NCBI GenBank assembly: GCA_964465315.1
Contig: CAYXIK010000008.1
Location: forward strand, 21,735-85,734
Direction: 5' to 3'
DNA: 64,000 nt
DNA from: an uncultured Gemmatimonadaceae bacterium
GTDB taxonomy: Bacteria; Gemmatimonadota; Gemmatimonadetes; Gemmatimonadales; GWC2-71-9
A program made the position numbers and the translations under genes. Positions within the stretch are counted from its first letter, which is position 1, and each line of letters opens with the position of its first letter. The notes below the pieces were generated by a model. The model did not search any database. It had not been told where the DNA came from and saw only the letters and a list, made by a program, of their open reading frames with translations. Below, piece by piece: positions 50,055 to 64,000 of the stretch.

Positions 50055-51787
<1,733 letters not shown>

Positions 51788-51791
<4 letters not shown>

Positions 51792-52951
51792 CGGCTGGCG
51801 CGTCGCAAGGGCTCAATCTCCGCTCCCTGCTCGAGGAGATGATCGAGAAGGACGCTTCGGACCTGCACATCGTCGCGGGTGAGCGTCCCAAACTCCGCGT
51901 CGACGGGGACATCGTGAACGCGGGCGTCGACGCCGTCCTCACGCCAAAGGACACACTCTCGATCGCCTACTCGGTCCTCACCGAGAACCAGAAGAAGCGG
52001 TTCGAGACCGAGAACGAGCTCGATTTCTCGTTCGGGATCCAGAACCTCGCGCGCTTCCGCGGCAACTGCTTCAAGCAGCGCGGGTGCGTGTCGCTCGTCA
52101 TCCGGCAAATCCCGTTCAACGTGCGGACCTTCGAGGAACTGGGGCTGCCGCCGGTCGTGGCCAAGCTGGCCGAGAAGCCGCGCGGGCTCGTCCTCGTGAC
52201 AGGGCCCACCGGGTCAGGCAAGAGCACGACCCTCGCCGCGATGGTCGACAAGATCAACAAGGAGCTGAAGGGCCACATCATCACGGTGGAGGACCCGATC
52301 GAGTTCATCCACCGCCATCAGGCCTGCATCGTCAACCAGCGGGAGATCGGGACCGACACGAACAGCTTCGCGTCGGCGCTCAAGTATGCGCTGCGGCAAG
52401 ACCCGGACGTGGTGCTCATCGGCGAGATGCGGGACCTCGAGACGATCGCCGCCGCCCTCACCATCGCGGAGACGGGGCATCTCGCCTTCGCGACGCTCCA
52501 CACCAACTCGGCGATGGAGAGCATCAACCGCATCATCGACGTCTTCCCGTCGCACCAGCAGGCCCAGGTGCGCGCGCAGCTGTCGTTCGTGCTGGAAGGC
52601 GTCATTACCCAGACGCTCCTCCAGAAGATCAAGGGTCGCGGCCGGGTGATGGCGGCCGAGATCCTGGTGATGACCCCAGCAGTCCGCGCGCTGATCCGCG
52701 ACGAGAAGATCGAGCAGATCCCGTCGATGATGCAGGCGGGCAAGAAGCACGGGATGCAGACTCTGAACGACGCGCTCTATCAGCTGTACGTGGGCCGCGA
52801 GGTCACGAAGGACGAATGCCTGCGCGTGACATCGACGCCGAACGAGTTCCTGCGGATGATCGGCGAGCAGCCCATGGACGAAAAGGACGTGCTGTCGCCG
52901 ACCGCGGCGCCGCAGCAACCCGGCGCCGGCAAGGTCGCGGCTCGTCGTTAA
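51788..52951 (+). CDS. pilT: Type IV pilus retraction ATPase
   Basis: ASDLH, GPTGSGKST, TVEDPIE, ALRQDPD, AETGH, ATLHT. Confidence 0.95.
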
Positions 52952-52972
52952 GCGCCCGGAAGGGAGTGAGCC

Positions 52973-54178
52973 ATGCCGGTCTTTCAGTACACCGCCCGCA
53001 CGCTCAAAGGCGATCTGGTCAACGACAAGATCGACCTGCCGACGCGGGACGACGTCATCGCGCACCTGCGCAAGAACCGCATGGTGGTGGTGCAGGTCCG
53101 GGCGGCGCCGAAGGAGTTCAAGCTCAGCCTGAAGTTCGGCGGCGGCGTCCGGACCCGCGACGTCGTCGTCTTCACGCGCCAGTTCGCCACCATGATCAAC
53201 GCCGGCTTGCCCTTGGTGCAGGCCCTCGACATCCTGGCGCAGCAGACCGAGAACAAGATCCTGGCCGACGTCACCCGCCAGGTGGTGTACGACGTGGAGA
53301 GCGGCCAGACGCTCGCCGACGCCCTCCGCAAGCACCCGAAGGCGTTCAGCGACCTGTACGTCAACATGGTCGCGGCGGGTGAAGCGGGCGGTATCCTCGA
53401 CACCATTCTCGTCCGGCTCGCCGAGTTCCTCGAGAAAAACGACGCCATCGTACGCAAGGTGAAGGGCGCGATGATCTACCCAGGCGTCATTCTCTCGGTG
53501 GCGGTCATCGCCGTATCAGTGCTGCTGATTTTCGTGATTCCGACCTTCCAGAACATGTTCGCCTCCGTCAACCTGCAGCTGCCCCTGCCGACACGGATCG
53601 TGATCGGCGCGAGCAGCGTGCTGAAGAGCTACTGGTGGGCCATCCTCGGGGTCATCGGGTTCGCCGTCTTCGGCGTCAATCGGTACTACAAGACCGCGGC
53701 GGGCCGTCTCCAGATCGACACGCTGCTGCTCAAGATGCCGGTGCTGGGCGATGTGCTTCGCAAGGCCGCCGTGTCGCGCTTCACGCGGACGCTCGGGACC
53801 CTGATCTCGTCGGGCGTGTCCATCCTCGACGGCCTGGAGATCACGGCGCGCACCGCCGGGAACATGGTGATCCACAATGCAGTGATGGAGTCCCGCGCGT
53901 CCATCGCGGGTGGCGAAACCATCTCGGCCCCGCTCGCCAAGTCCAAAGTGTTCCCGCCGATGGTGATCTCCATGATCTCCGTGGGCGAGCAGACCGGCGG
54001 TATGGACGAGATGCTGTCGAAGATCGCTGACTTCTACGACGACGAGGTGGACGCCGCCGTGAGCGCCCTGCTGTCGCTCATGGAGCCGGTCATGATCGTC
54101 GTGCTGGGCGTGATCGTCGGCGGTATGGTGGTAGCCATGTATCTGCCGATCTTCGACATGGTGAACGCGGTGCAGTAG
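52973..54178 (+). CDS. pilC: Type IV pilus platform protein (GspF family)
   Basis: FTRQFATMINAGLPL, AGEAGGILD, GAMIYP, GEQTG, MYLPIF. Confidence 0.95.
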   Translation: MPVFQYTARTLKGDLVNDKIDLPTRDDVIAHLRKNRMVVVQVRAAPKEFKLSLKFGGGVRTRDVVVFTRQFATMINAGLPLVQALDILAQQTENKILADVTRQVVYDVESGQTLADALRKHPKAFSDLYVNMVAAGEAGGILDTILVRLAEFLEKNDAIVRKVKGAMIYPGVILSVAVIAVSVLLIFVIPTFQNMFASVNLQLPLPTRIVIGASSVLKSYWWAILGVIGFAVFGVNRYYKTAAGRLQIDTLLLKMPVLGDVLRKAAVSRFTRTLGTLISSGVSILDGLEITARTAGNMVIHNAVMESRASIAGGETISAPLAKSKVFPPMVISMISVGEQTGGMDEMLSKIADFYDDEVDAAVSALLSLMEPVMIVVLGVIVGGMVVAMYLPIFDMVNAVQ

Positions 54179-54236: not shown

Positions 54237-57200
54237 TCAGGGTCCCGTGTGAGGTGGGGCCCCACGACCGCTTTCGTCGATCGCCGAGATGACGTCCTTG
54301 AGGGGGGTCTTGCGGAGCTCGACGCCGAACGCCGGTAGCGCGCGCTCGATCACGTCGCCGAACCGGCGGGCGGCGTCGGTGAGCCGTTGGGCGAACAAGT
54401 CGTGCACGGCGATCTGCTGCGCGGTGGGCGCGAAATCGGCTCCGTTCTCGGAGACGTCCGACTGCAGCGCTGCGAGCCTGCCGTAGAGCTGCATCGGCGA
54501 GCGGAACGCATCCTCCCGCGCGCCCGTCAAGTGCACGTCGAAAAGGACACCCTCCACACCGAGGGCGCGCGCGTCGAGCGAGTCGGCCAGCGCGGCGATG
54601 CGCTTGGCGTTCGAGTCCCCAACCACCGCGGAGTCGCCGCGCAGCTGCCCGACGAGGTCACGCAGCTGCTTCCGGACCCATTCGAGCCGGTTGATCATCC
54701 GGGCGACACTGTCCTGCTCGCCCCGGATCGCCAGCGCCAGCCGCGTTTGCGCCTGCACATCGCTGTCCGTCCCCGTTGTATTGGGGTCCTTGAGGACCGT
54801 GAGAGGTTGCGTAAGCGTGACCGCGGAGTTCGCCCGGCTCCCCGTGTCGGCGACCGTCAGGCGCACGGTGTAGGTGCCGGGAGGCGCGAGCGGACCCCGG
54901 AGCGACAGGTCCAGGTCCCAGGTCACGAGCGGACGCGTACCGTCGGACCCGACCCGGACGAACGCCTTGCCCGGCGGCGGGGTCCGAAGCTTGGGCACCG
55001 TGGGGGACGCGTAGCGCAGGTCCCACCACACCCGGTTCAAGCCTGGCCGCCGCTCTCCCTCGAGCGTGCGCACGGTATCCCCCGTCGGGCCGAGGATGAC
55101 GATTCTGGCCGGCTTCAGCCGGTGCGCGGTGTCGGGCGGCGTGCTCGTATCCGCCACCGACGGTGACACGTAGTACGTCAGGTCCGCGCCGTACGGAACC
55201 GTGTCGGGCTCCACCGCGCTGTTCGGCGCGCTCGCGACGCCCTGTTGTGGCCGGTACCGGTACGCCTGGCGGGGCGTGAAGAGGAAGGCCTTCGCGGCCA
55301 GTGTCACGGGCTCGAGCTGCTCGAGCGGCGATATGTCCTCCAGGATCCACGCGCCCCGTCCATAGGTGGCGACCACGAGGTCGCGGGCGTGGGGCTGCAC
55401 CGTCAGCCAGGAGACCGGCGCGTGGGGTAGGTTGGTCTGCAACGGCAGCCAATGCGCGCCATCGTCGATCGTCACGTATACGCCGCTTTCGGTACCCGCG
55501 TAGAGCATGCCGGCTCGGCTCGGATCCTCGCGGACCACGTGTACGAACCCGAGGGGAGAGCGGGGCAGGGCATCCGAGATTCGCTTCCAGGTCTTGCCGA
55601 AGTCGGTCGTCTTGTAGATGTACGGGTCGAGGTCGTCGAGCTCGTGCAGGTCCGCCGAGAGGTACGCGGTTCCCGGGTTGAAGCGCGACGGCTCGATGTT
55701 CGAGATCTTGGCCCACGGCGCGAGCTTGGGGATGCCCGCAGTGACGTTCACCCATGTACCGCCGCCGTCACGGGTGACGTGCACGAGGCCGTCGTTCGAG
55801 CCCGCCCAGATCACGCCCGATTGCACCGGAGACTCGGCCAGGGCGAACAGCGTGGCCCCGTCGAAGGTCATGAGGTTGTCGGTCGTGACGCCGCCCGAGC
55901 TCTGCTGGTGCGTGGTGTCGTTCCGCGTGAGGTCCGGGCTGATCACCTTCCAGCTCGCCCCGCCGTCGGTCGTTACATGCACGTACTGGCTGCCGACGTA
56001 CACGCGGGCGTGGTCGTGCGGCGAGATGGCGATCGGGAACGTCCAGTTCCAGCGGTACTTCAGATCGGCCGGCCGCCAGCCGTACGCGGCCTCCGGCCAA
56101 ACGCGCACGTTCCGGGCGTGGTCCGTTCGCACGTCGTACACCTCGAGGCCTCCGTCGTAGCAACCCGACCAGACCGTCGTGTTGGTGACCGTGTCGGGGA
56201 TGCCGAAGCCGCTCTCGCAGCCGCCCACGTGCCCCCATTGGCCCTCCGATGCCCCGCCCGACAAGCTCCGGCTCGGCATGCGGTACGACGTACCGTCCTG
56301 CCGGTTGCCGTACAAGTTGTAGGGGACGCGAGTGTCGGTATGCACGTGGTACAGCTGGGCGATGGGCAGCACGACCCGCGTGAACGTCTTGCCCCGATTG
56401 AGCGTGATGCTCGCGCCCCCATCGTGCGCGATCATGAAGCGGTCGGGGTTCAGCGGGTCGATCCAGACGTCGTGATTGTCACCGCCACCGTGGAAATCCG
56501 ACCGACCGAGCGAGCGGCCGCCATCCCGGGAAATGCTGAAGCGGACGGAGACGAAGTACAGGCGGTCCTCGTCGTCCGGCGCCACGGCGAAGCGGACGTA
56601 GTACGGCGCGCGCTCGGCCATGTTGTGATCCCGGCTCACGAGGCGCCACGTGACGCCCCGATCGTCGCTCCTGTAGAGCGCCGGATCCTGATCCTCGATC
56701 AGCGCGTACACGGTATTCGGGTTCGAGACGGCGACCGCGACGGCGATCTTGCCCACCGTGTGCTGCGCGTCGGGCAGTCCGCGTCCGGCGAGGCGCGTCC
56801 AGGTCACGCCGCCGTCGCGCGAGACCCAGAGGCCGCTGCCCGGTCCGCCGCTCTGGAGATGCCACGTCTTGACCTCGAACTGCCACATCCCCGCAAAGAC
56901 GGTGTTGGGATCGCCCGGATCCATGGCGAGGTCGGAGCACCCGGTGTTGGGATCCACGAACAGCACCCGCGCCCAGGTCTTCCCGCCGTCTGCCGTGCGG
57001 TACACCCCGCGATCCTGGGCCGGACCGTAGGCCCGCCCCAGGGCGCACACGAGCACCACCTCGGGGTTCGTCGGGTCGATCACGATGCGCGCGATTCGAC
57101 CCGTGGCGTCGAGCCCCATGTGGCGCCAACTGCGGCCGCCGTCCGTCGATCGGTAGACGCCGTTGCCGAGCGCCGTCGTCGACCGGATGAAGAACGTTTC

Positions 57201-57515
57201 GCCGGTGCCCGCCCACAGCACGTTGCGCGCCGAGGGCGCGATAGCGAGGGCGCCGATCGCCTGCGCCGGCGCGCTGTCGAACACCGCCCGCCAGTGTACC
57301 CCGCCGTCTTCCGTCTTCCAGATTCCGCCGGACGCGGCGCCAACGTAGGCCACCAGAGAATTGCCGGGCTCCCCCACGACGGCGATCGCGCGGTTCCCTT
57401 CGGGGCCGACGAAGCGGTAGCGGAGACGCGTCCACAGCGTGGTGTCAAGCTGTTGGGCGCCGAGGCCGGCGGCGAGCAGCGCGTGCATCGCGAAGACGAT
57501 ATGAAACCGGATCAT
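54237..57515 (-). CDS. Large exported BNR/Asp-box (VPS10-like) beta-propeller glycosyl hydrolase
   Basis: Signal peptide; many S/TxDGGxxW Asp-boxes (TEDGGVHW, STDGGRSW, SRDGGVTW, TTDFGKTW). Confidence 0.88.
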   Translation of the reverse strand: MIRFHIVFAMHALLAAGLGAQQLDTTLWTRLRYRFVGPEGNRAIAVVGEPGNSLVAYVGAASGGIWKTEDGGVHWRAVFDSAPAQAIGALAIAPSARNVLWAGTGETFFIRSTTALGNGVYRSTDGGRSWRHMGLDATGRIARIVIDPTNPEVVLVCALGRAYGPAQDRGVYRTADGGKTWARVLFVDPNTGCSDLAMDPGDPNTVFAGMWQFEVKTWHLQSGGPGSGLWVSRDGGVTWTRLAGRGLPDAQHTVGKIAVAVAVSNPNTVYALIEDQDPALYRSDDRGVTWRLVSRDHNMAERAPYYVRFAVAPDDEDRLYFVSVRFSISRDGGRSLGRSDFHGGGDNHDVWIDPLNPDRFMIAHDGGASITLNRGKTFTRVVLPIAQLYHVHTDTRVPYNLYGNRQDGTSYRMPSRSLSGGASEGQWGHVGGCESGFGIPDTVTNTTVWSGCYDGGLEVYDVRTDHARNVRVWPEAAYGWRPADLKYRWNWTFPIAISPHDHARVYVGSQYVHVTTDGGASWKVISPDLTRNDTTHQQSSGGVTTDNLMTFDGATLFALAESPVQSGVIWAGSNDGLVHVTRDGGGTWVNVTAGIPKLAPWAKISNIEPSRFNPGTAYLSADLHELDDLDPYIYKTTDFGKTWKRISDALPRSPLGFVHVVREDPSRAGMLYAGTESGVYVTIDDGAHWLPLQTNLPHAPVSWLTVQPHARDLVVATYGRGAWILEDISPLEQLEPVTLAAKAFLFTPRQAYRYRPQQGVASAPNSAVEPDTVPYGADLTYYVSPSVADTSTPPDTAHRLKPARIVILGPTGDTVRTLEGERRPGLNRVWWDLRYASPTVPKLRTPPPGKAFVRVGSDGTRPLVTWDLDLSLRGPLAPPGTYTVRLTVADTGSRANSAVTLTQPLTVLKDPNTTGTDSDVQAQTRLALAIRGEQDSVARMINRLEWVRKQLRDLVGQLRGDSAVVGDSNAKRIAALADSLDARALGVEGVLFDVHLTGAREDAFRSPMQLYGRLAALQSDVSENGADFAPTAQQIAVHDLFAQRLTDAARRFGDVIERALPAFGVELRKTPLKDVISAIDESGRGAPPHTGP

Positions 57516-57624
57516 GAGTGACTGCGCCTGGGCGGAAGGTCGGCTAAGAATGGCGGCCGGCTCGCCCACGCGCGAGAGGCGGCCAGGGGTGGCTGGGACG
57601 CGGGCGGCCAGTACATTCGGGCGG

Positions 57625-58300
57625 ATGAGCGTTTCCGACCATCGGGAGCCGACACCGGCCCGCACCGGCACTCTGCGCCACGACGCTCCGCCCATGCGCC
57701 TGTACCATGAGGCCAAGACGTTCGGCGCGTGGGACCCACGGAGTCTGGATCTGCGGCGCCCTGGCGGAAGAGGGGCACCACACCGAGTTCTTCCGACGCG
57801 TGCTAGACGAAGTGTGCCACCAATCCGGCGACCTCCAACGCTACCAGACACCGAGCTTCCGCCGGTTGTTTGCCGAGCACGTACCAGCGGCCATGCACCT
57901 GCTGCTCACCGATCCCTCCCCCGTCGCTCAGGGCGAGGCGCTCGTCGCGTACAGCCTGGTCGGCGAGGGTGTCCTCGGCGACGCAGGCTATCATTTGTTC
58001 GAGACCGCGTTCGCGGGCGGCCAATTGATGCCAGGGTTCCGCGATGGCCTCGCGCGCTCTCAGGCCGATGAGGCCCGACACGTGGCGTACGGCCTGTTCC
58101 TGCTGTCCCGCCTCGTGGCCGCTGATCCCCACGTGTGGATCGCGGTAAGCCGGCGCATGGAGGAGCCGCTGCCGCCCACGCTTGACGTGATCGCCGCGCT
58201 CCGGGCGCACCACGTTCCCGAGCGGCTCCGCACGGGCGGCAAGATGCGGCTGACGTTTCTGGCCACGCGCGGCAAGATCATCGTGCAGCCGTCGGAATGA
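57625..58300 (+). pseudogene. R2-like ligand-binding oxidase (R2lox) with an internal deletion and frameshift near 57755-57765
   Basis: One frame gives PPMRLYHEAKTFGAWDPRSLDL (R2lox N-terminus); another frame resumes at EEGHHTEFFRR...VGEGVLGDAGY...DEARH; about 60-70 codons are missing between them. Confidence 0.78.
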
Positions 58301-58314
58301 CGGCAGGTGGCGAC

Positions 58315-58932
58315 CTAGGGGACGGAGGGCGCGGGCGGCGGCTGGTTGGGATCCGCGCCCGCCAGATTCGGAAGCTCGAGCCACTGCCGCGGAAAGCGCG
58401 GTAGGAACTTCACGTGGCGGTTCACCACCGCCTGCACGCGTCGCCACCAGCATACGATCGGGCCGCGGGTGTGGCCCACGCTGACCACCGCGAAGGGAAT
58501 CGAGTCCGCCACCACGGTGCGCAGGTCGGGCTGGCTGAGCGAGCACAGGTCCTCCGGCGTCTTCACACCGAAGCTCGAGTCCGGTCCCGCCCAGACGTGG
58601 TTGTGCCAGACCGCTAGCGTCCCGGGCGCGCACGGCAGTGGCTCGACGTGATCCGCCGCGGAGCTCACCACGTCAGGCATCACGAACTCGCGCACCAGCG
58701 CCGTATCACCAGCTGTCGTCCCGTGGAGGCATAGCACCACTTCGCGATCGAGGCCCGCTGCGAGCAGGCTGATCCGGCGGAGCAGCGAGGGGGCGATAAC
58801 CAGGCGCTTGAGGGGTTGGGACGCGAGGATCGCCGAGTCGGCCGGGGTGAGGGCGGCCTGAGCCGCCGCGATGCTCGGCAGCAGCAGCGCTACGACCATC
58901 TGCCAGACCGAGACCCGAGGCGCGAGCGGCAT
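58315..58932 (-). CDS. Exported protein with a JAB/MPN+ (JAMM)-like motif
   Basis: Signal peptide; LVIAPSLLRRI...REVVLCLHG; LAVWHNH; SLSQPD. Confidence 0.62.
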   Translation of the reverse strand: MPLAPRVSVWQMVVALLLPSIAAAQAALTPADSAILASQPLKRLVIAPSLLRRISLLAAGLDREVVLCLHGTTAGDTALVREFVMPDVVSSAADHVEPLPCAPGTLAVWHNHVWAGPDSSFGVKTPEDLCSLSQPDLRTVVADSIPFAVVSVGHTRGPIVCWWRRVQAVVNRHVKFLPRFPRQWLELPNLAGADPNQPPPAPSVP

Positions 58933-59117
58933 ATCGTAGGATAGCGAACTCCGAGCGGTGCCGCGCTCTTGCACTTTGCCACATCAATCCCAATACTTAC
59001 GCCCGGCGCCCGCGGTCACGAGATCCCGAGTACGAATCAATAAGTCGTTGCTAATATTACCCTTATGAAGCTGGGCCTGCCCGCTTCCCGGCGGGGCCCG
59101 CTTGCAAGGAGAGCGGT

Positions 59118-60779
59118 GTGAGCTGGCTCGGGGGCGGCTCGCGGGGATCGGCGATCCCAACTCCACAGAGTCTGTTGCGGTCGGTGTACGCCGGGCGGCT
59201 GTGTGTGGCCACCGCGATCTACCTGGCTGCGACGTTCAAGTTCTCGGTCGTGGCGCCCCTCGACCTGCTCGTCACGTCGTTCCTGCTCGTGACCGCGGTG
59301 CTCGTCACGATCGCCTCCTACTGGCACACGCACATTCGGAATCGCTCTCCCGGCCGGACGTTCCTGTACGGGCAAGCGCTGTTCGACGTCGCGCTCATTA
59401 CTGCCGTCGTGCACATCACCGGCGGTCCGCAGAGCGACCTGACTCCGCTGTACGTCCCCCTCATCGCCGTCACTGCCGTGCTGATGCCGCCGGCAAGCAC
59501 GGGGCTCATCACGGCGCTCGTCGGGCTGGTCTACTTCGCCGACGTGCTCTTTGGGCACCGGACGCCAATGACGGCGCAGATCGCGCTCCAGCTGCTCGTG
59601 TTCGTGGCGGTGGCGGCGGTGACGGCGTACTTCGCGAGCCGCGTCTCCGTGATGGGGGCGGAGCGGGAGGCGCTGGCGGGCGAGCTCCGGCAGGCGCGGC
59701 TCGAGGCCTCCGACGTGCTGCGCAACATCCCGACGGGCGTCGTCACGGTGGACCAGAGCGGCCACCTCTTGTACTGCAACCCCGCCGCGGAGCAGATCCT
59801 CGGCTTCAAGGAGCGTGGCTGGCGAGGCCGACCTATCATGCCGGAGTTCGCGCGGATCGCGCCCGAGTTCTGGGCCGCCATCACGGCGACCGCCAGGCGA
59901 GGCGTGCGGGCGATGCGGGTCGAAGCGACGGTACGCCGCCCGGATCGGACGTTCACGATCGGCGTCACCACGACCACGCTCGAGGTCGAGCCGGATGGCG
60001 AGCCGAGAGTGACGGCGATCTTCACCGACATCTCGGACTCGAAGCGGCTCGAAGAGCTGCACTTGCGCGCCGAGCGGCTCGAGGCGGTGGCCGAGCTCTC
60101 GTCGAGCCTGGCCCACGAAATCAAGAACCCGCTCGCCTCCATCCGCTCGTCGGTGGAGCAGTTGGGGCGCGCCAAACGGGTCAACGCCGACGAGAAGTTC
60201 CTCACGTCGCTCATCGTGCGCGAGAGCGATCGCCTGTCGCGGCTGTTGTCGGAGTTTCTCGACTTCTCACGCGTGCGCGCCACCGAGTGCCGGCCGCTCG
60301 ACCTGCGGGACGTGGCCGCCGCCGCTATCCGCTTGGTGCGCGAGCATCCCGACTGCCCGGACGACGCGGTCATCGATCTCCGGGGGGACGCCGCGCCCAT
60401 GGAAGGAGACGAGGACCTGCTCCATCGCGTCGTCTCGAACCTCGTGCTCAACGCCGTCCAGGCCACGGGGAAGGGGGCGCGCGTCGAAGTCACGGTCGGT
60501 CGGCCCGCGTCCCAGGAGCTGCCCGGCGGCGCCGGGATCGAAAACCCTGTGTCGCTCGCGGTGAGCGACAACGGGCCGGGCATTCCCGAGGGCCTGCGGG
60601 CGCGCCTGTTCGAGCCGTTCGTGACGGGGCGGGTCGGCGGCACCGGGCTCGGCCTCGCGATCGTGCAGCGCGCGGTGGACGCGCACCGCGGGTTGGTCCT
60701 CGTCGATTCCACTCCGGGGAAGGGAACGACCTTCACCGTGTACCTCCCAGCCGCCCGAAGGAAAGAGGAAGCCGCATGA
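59118..60779 (+). CDS. pilS: PilS-like membrane sensor histidine kinase with PAS domain
   Basis: About 6 TMs, PAS (NIPTGVVTVD...CNPAAEQILG), LAHEIKNPL, GTGLGL. Confidence 0.8.
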   Translation: MSWLGGGSRGSAIPTPQSLLRSVYAGRLCVATAIYLAATFKFSVVAPLDLLVTSFLLVTAVLVTIASYWHTHIRNRSPGRTFLYGQALFDVALITAVVHITGGPQSDLTPLYVPLIAVTAVLMPPASTGLITALVGLVYFADVLFGHRTPMTAQIALQLLVFVAVAAVTAYFASRVSVMGAEREALAGELRQARLEASDVLRNIPTGVVTVDQSGHLLYCNPAAEQILGFKERGWRGRPIMPEFARIAPEFWAAITATARRGVRAMRVEATVRRPDRTFTIGVTTTTLEVEPDGEPRVTAIFTDISDSKRLEELHLRAERLEAVAELSSSLAHEIKNPLASIRSSVEQLGRAKRVNADEKFLTSLIVRESDRLSRLLSEFLDFSRVRATECRPLDLRDVAAAAIRLVREHPDCPDDAVIDLRGDAAPMEGDEDLLHRVVSNLVLNAVQATGKGARVEVTVGRPASQELPGGAGIENPVSLAVSDNGPGIPEGLRARLFEPFVTGRVGGTGLGLAIVQRAVDAHRGLVLVDSTPGKGTTFTVYLPAARRKEEAA

Positions 60780-62149
60780 GCCAGCAGCCTTCGATTCTGG
60801 TCGTCGACGACGAGATGGGGATCCTCGACGTGCTGCGGATCCTCCTCAAGGGCGAAGGATTCGAAGTCACCACCGCGCAGGGGGGGAAAGCCGGGCTCGA
60901 GGCCTTGAAGGGCAGCCCGCCCGACATCGTCCTCACCGACATCAAGATGCCGGGCGTGTCGGGGACGGAGATCCTCGCGGCCGTCCGCGAGCAGGATCCC
61001 GAGACGCCGGTGATCCTCATGACTGCTCAAGCCTCGCTCCAAAGCGCGATTCAGGCGGTGAACCAGGGTGCCTTCTACTACATCCAGAAGCCGTTCTCGA
61101 ACGACGACCTGGTGGCCATCTGCCGCCGCGCCGCCGAGCAGCGACTGCTGAAGGCCGAGAACAAGCAGTTGAAACAGGAGATCCGCCGCCGCGAGCGCTC
61201 CGGTCTCGTCAAGCCTCTGGGGAAGTCGCGGACGTTCCTCGAAGTCCTGAAGCTCGCCGAGCAGGTGGCCCCGACCGAGAGCACGGTGCTCATCCAGGGA
61301 GAATCGGGCACCGGGAAGGAGGTGATCGCGCGCTACATCCACGAGCTCTCGGCGCGATCGGACGGCGGGTTCTTCTCGCTCAACTGCGGCGCGCTGCCGG
61401 AGAGCCTGCTCGAGTCGGAGCTGTTCGGGCACGTCAAGGGATCGTTCACCGGCGCGGTGCGCGACAAGCAGGGCCTGTTCGCTGCCGCGCGGGGCGGCAC
61501 GTTCTTCCTCGATGAGATCGGCGAGATGTCGGCCGCGACGCAAGTGAAGCTGCTGCGCGTCCTGCAGGAGCGCGAAGCGATCCCCGTCGGCGGCACCGAG
61601 GCCATTCCGGTGGACGTCCGCGTCGTGGCCGCCACGAACCGGGATCTCGAGGACGACATCAAGCGCGGCCGCTTCCGGACCGATCTGTACTACCGGCTCA
61701 ACGTGATCGCCATCCATCTCCCCCCGTTGCGGGACCGGCGGGACGACATCCAGATCCTCTGGGAGGAGTTCCTCGGCCGCATCGCCAAGGAGCGCGGCGA
61801 GCCGCCCAAGACCCTCACCGAAGGGGCGAAGGGCTCGCTCCTCGCCTACGACTGGCCCGGCAACGTCCGCGAGCTCGAAAACGCGCTCGAGCGCGCCGTG
61901 GTGCTCTCGAAGAGCACCAGCATCGATCTCTCGGCCCTGCCGGACAAGCTGACCGAGCCGCGCGCCGAGCCGCTCGTGGCCGAGCGGGCCCATCCCAACC
62001 CCACGCTCGACGTCATCGAGCGCGCCTACATCACGTGGGTGTTGCAGACCGAGGGCGGCAACAAGACCCGGGCGGCCGAAGTGCTCGGGATCGACCCTTC
62101 CACCCTGTATCGCAAGCTGAGCCGATACGAGGGCGATGCGACCGGCTGA
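60776..62149 (+). CDS. pilR: PilR-like sigma54-dependent response regulator (REC-AAA+-HTH)
   Basis: [41 protein letters not shown], Fis-type HTH. Confidence 0.85.
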
Positions 62150-62861
62150 CGCGGCCCCGCCCCCCGTCGATCAGGTCGGGGCCGCGACGCTCGAGCGCAT
62201 GGCCGCGGCCCCCCGGTACAACCGATGGATGTTCGAGCGCCTGCGCCCCTGGGTGGGGCGCCGCGTGCTCGAGGTCGGCGCCGGGATCGGCAACATGTCC
62301 GCGTTCCTCGTCGATCGGGAGCGGCTCGTGCTGGCCGACACGGAGCCACACTACCTGGCCCGGCTGCGCGAGCGCTTCGACGATCGGCCGAACGTGCGCG
62401 TGGTAGAGCTCCGCCTACCGGCGTTCGATCCCCAGCTCGTCGCGGAGCGGATGGACACCGTCATTTGCCTCAACGTGCTCGAGCACATCGAGGACGACCG
62501 CGCGTCGCTCTTCGCCATGCGCCAGCTGCTCGATCCCGGCGGGCGGCTCGTGCTCCTCGTGCCCGCCCTGCGGCCTCTGTACGGCACTCTGGACCAGGCG
62601 CTCGGTCACTTTCGCCGGTATGTCCCCACCGAGCTTAGGAGCATGGTCGAGGAGTCGGGTTTTCGCGTCCGTCATCTCGAGTACTTCAATCTGGCGGGCG
62701 TGCCCGGGTGGTGGCTCGCGAGCCGCGTCCTTCGACGGCGCCTCATTCCGACCGGGGCGCTCCGCTGGTACGAGGCGCTGGTGCCACTGTTTCGATTGGA
62801 GCGATGGCTGCCGCGGCGTGTGGGACAGTCGCTGATCGCGATCGGCCAGGTGCCCGCGTGA
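62136..62861 (+). CDS. Class I SAM-dependent methyltransferase
   Basis: VLEVGAGIG, NVLEHIEDD, LDPGGRL. Confidence 0.88.
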   Translation: MRPADAAPPPVDQVGAATLERMAAAPRYNRWMFERLRPWVGRRVLEVGAGIGNMSAFLVDRERLVLADTEPHYLARLRERFDDRPNVRVVELRLPAFDPQLVAERMDTVICLNVLEHIEDDRASLFAMRQLLDPGGRLVLLVPALRPLYGTLDQALGHFRRYVPTELRSMVEESGFRVRHLEYFNLAGVPGWWLASRVLRRRLIPTGALRWYEALVPLFRLERWLPRRVGQSLIAIGQVPA

Positions 62862-63592
62862 CGTCCCCATCGCTACGGCCCGCGGACGACCTTTTGCTCT
62901 CCGTAATCATCCCGGCGTACAACGAGGCGGGGACCATTGAGGCGGTGCTGCGGCGCCTGCGGCAGGTGCCGCTTCGGCTCGAGGTGGTCGCGGTGGACGA
63001 CGCCTCGACCGACGGAACGGGCGCTCTCCTCGACCGGCTCGCGAGCGACGGGCTCGCGCAACTGGTCATCCACCACCGCGCGAACCGCGGGAAGGGCGCC
63101 GCGCTGCGCAGTGGCATTGCGGCGGCCACCGGGCACGTGATCGTCCCCCAGGACGCTGATCTCGAGTACGACCCCATGGACCTGCCCCGCTTGCTGGGAC
63201 CGATCGCGGAGGGTCGGGCCGATGCCGTGTACGGCTCTCGCTTTCAAGGCGGGCCGCATCGCGTGCTCTTTTTTTGGCACGCGGTCGGCAACAATCTGCT
63301 CACGCTCGTCTCCAACATGTTCACGAACCTGAACCTCACGGACATGGAGACGTGCTACAAGTTGGTCCGGGCGGACGTGATGAAGCGGCTCTCGCTGACG
63401 GCCGAGCGGTTCGGGATCGAAGTCGAGCTGACGGCACGGCTGGCGCAGGCGGGCGCGCGCATCTGGGAGCTGCCGATCTCCTACAGCGGCCGGACCTACG
63501 CCGAGGGAAAAAAGATCACGTGGCGGGACGGGCTGGCAGCGCTGTTTCACATCCTGCGCTATAACGTGTTGCCATCTCGGCGCAAGGCGTGA
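62858..63592 (+). CDS. GT2 glycosyltransferase, DPM1-like (polyprenol-phosphate sugar synthase type)
   Basis: IIPAYNE, VDDASTD, NRGKGAA, QDADLEYDP, YGSRF, DMETCYK, FGIEVELT. Confidence 0.9.
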   Translation: MTSPSLRPADDLLLSVIIPAYNEAGTIEAVLRRLRQVPLRLEVVAVDDASTDGTGALLDRLASDGLAQLVIHHRANRGKGAALRSGIAAATGHVIVPQDADLEYDPMDLPRLLGPIAEGRADAVYGSRFQGGPHRVLFFWHAVGNNLLTLVSNMFTNLNLTDMETCYKLVRADVMKRLSLTAERFGIEVELTARLAQAGARIWELPISYSGRTYAEGKKITWRDGLAALFHILRYNVLPSRRKA

Positions 63593-64000
63593 GCGCCAGG
63601 CGCCTCTACGCCGCGGTGGCCGCCGGCGCCCTGGTCTTCTACTTCGGAGCGCTGGGGAATCGCTTCGCGCTCGACGACAACCACATCATCGCGTTCAACG
63701 CCCTGGTGCATCACATCGGTGGCATGTGGCGCACGTTCGCGGCGCCCTACTGGCCGCCCGAGGTAGGCGGCGGGCTCTACCGACCCTTACCGATCGCGTC
63801 CTACACCCTCGACTGGTCGCTCAGCGGCGGCGCGCCTTGGTGGTTCCATCTCGTGAATCTTGCCTGGCACGCCGGCGCGAGCGTCGCTGTGGCGTTCTTG
63901 GCGAGGCACTTGAGTGGCGACCGCGCCGCGTGGACCGCCGGCCTGCTCTTCGCGGTCCATCCGGTCCACGTCGAAGCCGTCGCCAACATCGTCGGACGGG
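63589..64000 (+). CDS. TMTC-like GT-C glycosyltransferase, partial (runs off window; not in ORF track)
   Basis: Manual translation from GTG 63589: MSARRLYAAVAAGALVFYFGALGNRFALDDNHII...LYRPLPIASY...FHLVNLAWH...LLFAVHPVHVEAVANIVGR; contains the DD, YRP, H.VN...H and F.VHP.H.EAV motifs. Confidence 0.82.
   Translation, partial: MSARRLYAAVAAGALVFYFGALGNRFALDDNHIIAFNALVHHIGGMWRTFAAPYWPPEVGGGLYRPLPIASYTLDWSLSGGAPWWFHLVNLAWHAGASVAVAFLARHLSGDRAAWTAGLLFAVHPVHVEAVANIVGR

Follow-up and report, generated by a model that had tools for sequence, protein, structure and literature searches.

Gene organization of the locus and the adjacent pilin genes

The stretch of DNA analysed here (64,000 nt; hereafter, the window) is located on contig C8 of a Gemmatimonadales genome (G000; 3.1 Mb, 118 contigs, 93% complete) and ends inside an operon in which genes for a class I S-adenosylmethionine (SAM) methyltransferase, a family 2 glycosyltransferase (GT2) and glycosyltransferases of the GT-C type directly follow pilS and pilR. 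The products of these genes appear to form a pilin O-glycosylation module. Contig C8 extends 2,894 nt past the window end, and the sequence beyond the window was also read for downstream genes. The features of the region are as follows; those located beyond the window are given in window-equivalent positions, with their positions in locus L003 in parentheses.

50055-54178: pilB, pilT and pilC, upstream of pilS
59118-60779, + strand: PilS-like sensor histidine kinase, 553 aa (Pfam 6TM_PilS, 30.1 bits with a cut-off of 27; PAS, HisKA and HATPase_c)
60776-62149, + strand: PilR-like NtrC-family sigma-54 activator, 457 aa (Response_reg, Sigma54_activat, AAA_lid_14 and HTH_8)
62136-62861, + strand: class I SAM methyltransferase, 241 aa (Methyltransf_12/23/25/11)
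62858-63592, + strand: GT2, polyprenyl-phosphate-sugar synthase type, 244 aa (PF00535, E 2e-33)
63589-65094 (L003:5324-6829), + strand: GT-C1, 501 aa, with the N-terminal 137 aa inside the window (63589-64000)
65091-66593 (L003:6826-8328): GT-C2, 500 aa, beyond the window
66742-66755 (L003:8477-8490): sigma-54-type -24/-12 box, beyond the window
66834 (L003:8569): start of pilA, which is cut by the contig end

From pilS to GT-C2, the genes overlap by 4 or 14 nt at every junction: ATGA at pilS/pilR and at GT-C1/GT-C2, 14 nt at pilR/methyltransferase, and GTGA at both methyltransferase/GT2 and GT2/GT-C1. The methyltransferase, GT2, GT-C1 and GT-C2 genes are translationally coupled to pilS-pilR. 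The junctions from pilR to the first GT-C agree with those given in an earlier annotation of this DNA (hereafter, the initial annotation). A scan of the operon for sigma-70 promoters and terminators yielded nothing exceeding shuffled sequences.

The earlier remark that no pilA follows pilR holds inside the window only; on the extended contig, pilA comes four genes after pilR. This type IV pilin gene (MNRKGFTLIELL...) begins 240 nt after GT-C2 and is truncated by the contig end, and its first codons (ATG AAT CGC AAG GGT TTT ACG CTC ATT GAG...) encode MNRKGFTLIELLIVVVIIGI, a type IV prepilin N-terminus. The -24/-12 box (GGCACGAGGCTTGC; GG-N10-GC) is located 78 nt 5' of the pilA ATG, suggesting that the pilin genes have their own sigma-54 promoter directly after the GT-C genes. 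Contig C35, read in reverse, opens with the C-terminus of a pilin (...AVAPAVTEGAPACQ stop), after which come PilS2, PilR2 and minor pilin genes, as in relatives. Because C8 ends in a pilin start and C35 begins with a pilin C-terminus, the assembly appears to have been broken within repeated pilin genes.

At least five further major-pilin-type genes or gene fragments with near-identical N-termini were identified in the genome (C2:61625-62026, C5:67437-67811, C109:1224-1613, C109:2220-2546, C45:2-130 and the C35 end), and several contigs start or stop inside pilin genes. The two pilin genes on C109 lie on either side of a gene for a single-domain response regulator, near a gene for a Big-like repeat protein.

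Properties of the predicted donor synthase, methyltransferase and GT-C proteins

GT2 is devoid of a transmembrane (TM) anchor, and its DxD motif is DAD within QDADLEYDP. The best PDB match is the Pyrococcus dolichyl-phosphate mannose (Dol-P-Man) synthase 5mlz (E 3e-14 over residues 12-223), followed by ArnC and GtrB (about 4e-11); the identity to ArnC is 31% over 111 residues. This nearest solved relative agrees with the DPM1-like nature previously assigned to GT2. The top NCBIfam matches, namely AglJ (112.7 bits with a cut-off of 325), a Dol-P-hexose transferase and PpgS, were all below their cut-offs. Judging from these similarities, GT2 clearly belongs to the polyprenyl-phosphate-sugar synthase class (DPM1/GtrB/ArnC type); because no equivalog-level NCBIfam match was obtained, this assignment applies to the class and not to the sugar.

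The methyltransferase contains neither a signal peptide nor a TM helix, and its matches in PDB and NCBIfam are generic class I enzymes only, which give no indication of specificity. As it carries no export signals, it should be cytoplasmic, and a role in the pathway would mean acting there, on a nucleotide sugar or a lipid-sugar. A sugar or lipid-sugar is the presumed substrate.

GT-C2 is 51% identical to GT-C1 and retains every invariant residue of the family. In a sequence search, the family had more than 2,451 matches in Gemmatimonadota, some of which are labelled 'protein O-mannosyl-transferase' by the Joint Genome Institute, and the surrounding superfamily comprises 39,961 50%-cluster representatives at E <= 1e-3 and 966 at <= 1e-30. 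Among 27 close family members, including GT-C2, the residues invariant in all are D29-D30, Y64-R65-P66, H124-P-x-H-x-E-A-V (HPVHVEAV at residues 124-131 of GT-C1), K173-E174 (SKEN), D265-Y266 and E334-R335-x-x-Y338, and D29-D30 is also retained in all of 32 longer relatives. The DD, YRP and HP.H.EAV motifs noticed earlier, at 29-30, 64-66 and 124-131, are among these residues.

No Pfam family reached threshold for GT-C1 or GT-C2; TMTC_DUF1736 (PF08409) did not match GT-C1 and scored 17.0 bits with GT-C2 (cut-off 27). Weak DUF1736 matches were obtained for 24 of the 27 family members (best E 1e-3), and five gave PMT_2 matches. The longer relatives (540-775 aa, 35-42% identical) carry tetratricopeptide repeats (TPRs) in 26 of 32 cases, DUF1736 in nine (up to E 4.7e-11) and PMT_2 in 10. 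The family profile aligns with the TPR/DUF1736-bearing relatives at an hhalign probability of 100% (E 5e-106), and its C-terminal 110 residues align on their first TPRs. The TMTC-type assignment in the initial annotation is thus sustained by architecture and motifs, whereas the gathering score of PF08409 is missed by the proteins of this locus themselves.

An AlphaFold (AF2) model of GT-C1 (predicted local distance difference test 83.6; predicted template modelling score 0.85) contains 11 TM helices; the loops on the N-terminal side are rich in Arg/Lys, and a C-terminal domain of seven helices (residues 385-501) is located on the other side. According to this model, GT-C1 has a GT-C fold with its N-terminus in and its C-terminus out. 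Foldseek matched the model to ArnT (5f15), AglB, STT3, ALG9, PglB and AftA at a probability of 1.0 (E 2e-3 to 4e-2; TM-score of about 0.4), and its TPR matches were structures of APC/C, OGT and Tom70. Searching the PDB by sequence, whether with GT-C1 or with the family profile, revealed no true relative, so that only the fold search was informative. No long TPR C-terminus was found on the contig extension: the tail of GT-C1 consists of only about 110 aa of TPR-like helices, and neither GT-C1 nor GT-C2 has a Pfam TPR match.

Two local features of GT-C1 were also observed. The periplasmic TPR-like tail contains a CxxC (C465 and C468; L003:6716-6727) that is invariant in the 27 close members, whereas the longer relatives with TPRs do not retain it; a disulfide or a metal site is conceivable. 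Residues 313-327 (WIGIAFSPVSNLAAP), just before the AER loop, exhibit a W-x6-P-x6-P pattern, which is loosely reminiscent of the proline-rich motif (YX6PFX7P) that a published description of EmbC and TfpW connects with chain length.

ArnT being the best fold match, the acceptor might be lipid A, lipopolysaccharide (LPS) or an exopolysaccharide, decorated by an ArnT/GtrC-like three-component logic and only co-regulated with pili. The GT2 plus GT-C layout is that of the Arn and Gtr systems, and coupling to PilSR could also serve surface remodelling. By sequence, however, the GT-Cs do not group with ArnT, a grouping that would have spoken against protein glycosylation: the family profile shows no similarity to Escherichia coli ArnT (hhalign probability 0.6%). 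The proteins also have 11 TM helices and a TPR-like tail, whereas ArnT has 13 TM helices and a periplasmic domain. No arnA/B/D/E/F or O-antigen genes were found at the locus and no GtrA in the genome, and the linkage to pilin genes described below is phylum-wide. Because ArnT is also the best template for models of TMTC proteins (PMC7801869) and of the pilin glycosyltransferase TfpW, the fold match does not discriminate and is no argument for a role in lipid A modification. A non-protein acceptor is therefore considered quite improbable.

Linkage to pilin genes and proposed function

Gene order was compared in twelve 12-20-kb regions from relatives and in 79 species-representative loci of GTDB genomes, all of the latter belonging to Gemmatimonadota (Gemmatimonadales, Gemmatimonadaceae and Longimicrobiales). 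In both samples (about 90 loci), the order is PilS1-PilR1-(methyltransferase)-GT2-GT-C (1-5 copies)-pilin (1-4)-PilS2-PilR2-minor pilins. A pilin gene starts within 1.2 kb of the last GT-C in 40 of the 52 loci with enough downstream sequence, and in most of the exceptions the pilins are slightly further away. Upstream, PilR is present in 43 of 47 loci, GT2 in 36 and the methyltransferase in 21, and relatives have PilR orthologues of 68-94% identity at this position. In 22 of 54 related loci, the first pilin is preceded by a GGCAC-N6-TGC box, for which base composition predicts a frequency of about 1%. Many GT-C matches are located at contig ends, as on C8, a pattern consistent with assemblies breaking at pilin repeats.

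GT-C1 and GT-C2 fall into distinct orthologue clades, both of them well supported, and their gene order is kept in congeners, suggesting that they derive from an old duplication kept under selection; this fits either a functional pair or two different steps or sites. Two genomes lacking the TMTC-like GT-C carry other proteins in the same slot. In G008, which belongs to the same genus, the order is PilS-PilR-[510-aa polytopic protein with a GVFYDDSLY loop]-pilin-pilin, with no GT2 in the slot (L137:4898-6430), and in G029 it is PilS-PilR-[two PMT_2 GT-Cs of 527 and 521 aa]-GT2-pilin (L136:11331-14476). These alternative proteins (510-527 aa) share a GVF(Q/Y)DD(G/S)(I/L)Y loop after TM1, and one of the three matches Pfam PMT_2 at threshold. 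Since another GT-C family thus occupies the pilR-pilA slot in G008 and G029, two GT-C families appear to have been drawn to the pilin gene.

On this basis, the locus is proposed to encode a TfpW-like, lipid-carrier (polyprenyl-phosphate-hexose)-dependent pilin O-glycosylation module, a reading to which we assign a probability of roughly 0.6. The connection of a lipid-donor glycosylation module with type IV pili, already suggested in the initial annotation, is supported in silico by the DPM1/ArnC/GtrB-type GT2, the GT-Cs and the phylum-wide pilin linkage. From the gene content, overlaps, fold, family relations and synteny observed, we infer the donor type, the acceptor and the role of the methyltransferase. 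GT2 would move a hexose from a nucleotide sugar onto polyprenyl phosphate at the cytoplasmic face, where the methyltransferase may methylate the sugar or the lipid-sugar. The lipid-sugar would then be flipped across the membrane, and the paralogous 11-TM proteins GT-C1 and GT-C2 would pass the sugar to Ser/Thr of the type IV pilin at the periplasmic face, either jointly or each at its own site or step. Catalysis may involve the DD loop together with the K-E, D-Y and E-R-x-x-Y loops, and the short TPR-like tail may hold the protein acceptor.

Several points weigh against this proposal. A flippase gene was not found in the operon, and a GtrA-family search of the 93%-complete genome found none. 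GT-C1 and GT-C2 fall short of the Pfam thresholds, and the module is tied transcriptionally to pilSR and not to pilA. It is the gene neighbourhood that points to the pilin as the presumed acceptor, and a comparison of pilins across GT-C-bearing and GT-C-free genomes did not yield a conserved acceptor site. D53-S54-[AIV] was considered as such a site and rejected: it is present in all pilins of G000 (D-S-[AIV] at mature positions 53-55) and near-invariant in the genus, but other GT-C-bearing families have D-N, D-Q, D-F or D-A in its place, and similar pilins occur in genomes without the GT-Cs, so that it gives no acceptor signal. As a separate observation, the relative G031, which carries no pilin-linked GT-C, contains at least 14 scattered major-pilin-like genes, three of them with an in-frame TAA.

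The acceptor may instead be another pilus component, such as the minor pilins or a tip adhesin, or the pilin together with a small number of other envelope proteins. The supercluster also includes minor pilin genes, located after PilS2-PilR2, pilin paralogues are located elsewhere in the genome (C2, C5 and C109), and the GT-C copy number (1-5) is not simply matched to that of the pilins. This alternative is nevertheless unlikely, because a major-pilin-type gene (110-137 aa) lies next to the last GT-C in almost all cases and because the precedents TfpW and TfpO modify the major pilin.

In the initial annotation, the GT-C was also regarded as the obvious candidate writer for D-S/T sites, which corresponds to a general O-glycosylation system in which the GT-Cs modify a D-S/T-hydrophobic sequon of exported proteins. 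The sequon was counted in approximate protein sets, with genes called by a simple open reading frame caller filtered by GC content at third codon positions (GC3) and exported proteins selected by a heuristic signal-peptide rule. In G000, D-[ST]-[AILVMT] is 2.11-fold over the shuffled expectation in 319 exported proteins (749 observed, 355 expected) and 1.01-fold in 982 cytoplasmic proteins. No enrichment was seen for E[ST]h, N[ST]h and D[AG]h, which served as controls. The excess is thus real and confined to exported proteins, and the D-S-[AIV] of every G000 pilin also fits this sequon. PglL of Neisseria provides a precedent, having first been held to be pilin-specific and then proved to be general.

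However, a comparable excess was obtained from 400-kb samples of each of two relatives (G033 and G031; 98-99% complete; 25 and 33 exported proteins, respectively) in which neither the TMTC-like GT-C family nor the PMT_2-type pilin-linked family was found. The exported excess is 1.88 in G033 (73 observed, 38.9 expected; Poisson p 7e-7), with 0.83 for cytoplasmic proteins, and 2.08 in G031 (102 observed, 49.1 expected), with 1.14 for cytoplasmic proteins. The sequon signal is therefore independent of the module, and the GT-C loses its standing as the obvious writer. Furthermore, each GT-C copy examined is located in the pilR-pilin slot, and in the Bacteroidota system, glycans built on undecaprenyl pyrophosphate are probably what is transferred, by an O-oligosaccharyltransferase yet to be identified (PMC12871550). 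General protein O-glycosylation by these GT-Cs is accordingly very unlikely, and another writer has to be found for the Bacteroidota-like D-S/T sequon of Gemmatimonadota. The twofold, exported-only excess itself was reproduced by this crude method in three Gemmatimonadales genomes, with a clear effect size.

Returning to the pilin glycosylation module, a more far-reaching version of the proposal is that the pilR-pilA slot is a diversification hot spot for pilin glycosylation, in which unrelated GT-C families (TMTC/TfpW-like and PMT_2-like), 1-5 paralogues and an optional methyltransferase are swapped even within a genus, and that the methyltransferase and GT2 together produce a polyprenyl-phosphate hexose carrying a methyl group, a lipid-linked donor type not yet described. 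This version is tentative and, taken as a whole, somewhat unlikely. The swapping pattern is what an arms race with pilus-specific phages would produce. In Pseudomonas, glycosylation of the pilin protects from such phages (bioRxiv 10.1101/150227), so that in Gemmatimonadota, which are abundant in soil, the module may influence both the susceptibility to phages and the behaviour of the cell surface.

Almost no experimental work addresses the very large family of bacterial TMTC-like GT-C/TPR proteins, and the one paper found to mention DUF1736 in connection with bacteria notes only that homologues exist. The compact operon offers a direct experimental handle on such enzymes, as two transferases are found in it together with their probable donor synthase and next to their probable acceptor. 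If the more far-reaching version holds, TMTC-type protein O-glycosyltransferases would gain a first tractable model in bacteria with these small two-enzyme cassettes.

Elsewhere in the window, the interval between pilC and pilS (54237-58974) contains a 1,204-aa minus-strand open reading frame, a possible frameshifted ferritin-like gene and an exported JAMM-like gene.

Comparison with known glycosylation systems

TMTC1-4 (CAZy GT105; Pfam TMTC_DUF1736 plus TPR) are animal Dol-P-Man-dependent O-mannosyltransferases of cadherins (PMC7801869). Human TMTC and TfpW were compared with the present proteins by their published descriptions (architecture and motifs). TMTC proteins share with GT-C1 and GT-C2 an 11-TM GT-C topology, an extracytoplasmic TPR or TPR-like tail and a DPM1-type donor synthase partner (PMC7801869), as well as DD and YRP in the first extracytoplasmic loop (EL1), K-E in EL3, a D-aromatic pair in the TM7-TM8 loop and ERxxY in EL5. 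In the SHKSYRP sequence of TMTC EL1, H and K were proposed to contact the donor phosphate or mannose (PMC7801869); these two residues are absent here (GGGLYRP), and the DW of TMTC, which belongs to the DUF1736 loop between TM7 and TM8, is DY (D265-Y266). The TPR-like tail corresponds to about three repeats here, compared with 8-12 in the TPR array of TMTC, and the acceptor here is presumably a pilin instead of a cadherin domain.

A bacterial DPM1-like GT2 paired with a GT-C is also found in the actinobacterial Ppm1 and Pmt system of Mycobacterium, Streptomyces and Corynebacterium, in which the GT2 makes polyprenyl-phosphate mannose and the GT-C (GT39) transfers it to Ser/Thr of exported proteins. 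Pmt, however, is a GT39/PMT family enzyme with broad Sec substrates and no pilin linkage, whereas the GT-Cs of the present locus are TMTC/TfpW-like and pilin-linked. ArnC-ArnT and GtrA-GtrB-GtrC likewise combine a GT2 polyprenyl-phosphate-sugar synthase with a periplasmic GT-C, but these systems have lipid A or O-antigen acceptors, TM-anchored GT2s and dedicated flippases (ArnE/F and GtrA).

A literature search found no paper on pilin glycosylation in Gemmatimonadota, and the closest counterpart comes from Pseudomonas aeruginosa/paraeruginosa group IV (Pa5196 and PA7), namely TfpW, a 646-aa pilin D-arabinofuranosyltransferase (bioRxiv 10.1101/2020.04.19.049825). TfpW is the one proven enzyme of this 11-TM, TPR, DDx, pilA-adjacent design. 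Its N-terminus is in the cytoplasm and its C-terminal TPR domain in the periplasm; of its 11 TM helices, the first periplasmic loop carries the DDx (bioRxiv 10.1101/2020.04.19.049825). Further shared features are ArnT as the best structural template, a gene position beside the major pilin gene and a polyprenyl-phosphate monosaccharide as the donor, which for the present GT-Cs is a predicted one.

The two systems differ in several respects. TfpW contains a large TPR domain and is encoded downstream of pilA, whereas the present enzymes are about 500 aa long with about three TPR-like hairpins and are the products of two paralogues, both retained, that are located upstream of pilA and fused to pilSR. 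The TfpW donor is decaprenyl-phosphate-arabinofuranose from DprE1/E2-type genes (DPA pathway). The present locus contains no DprE1/DprE2-type donor genes and has instead a DPM1/AglJ-like GT2, for which a hexose donor is presumed, and a methyltransferase, which is optional among the related loci. These comparisons suggest that the module is a phylum-wide variant of the known TfpW-type pilin glycosylation design.

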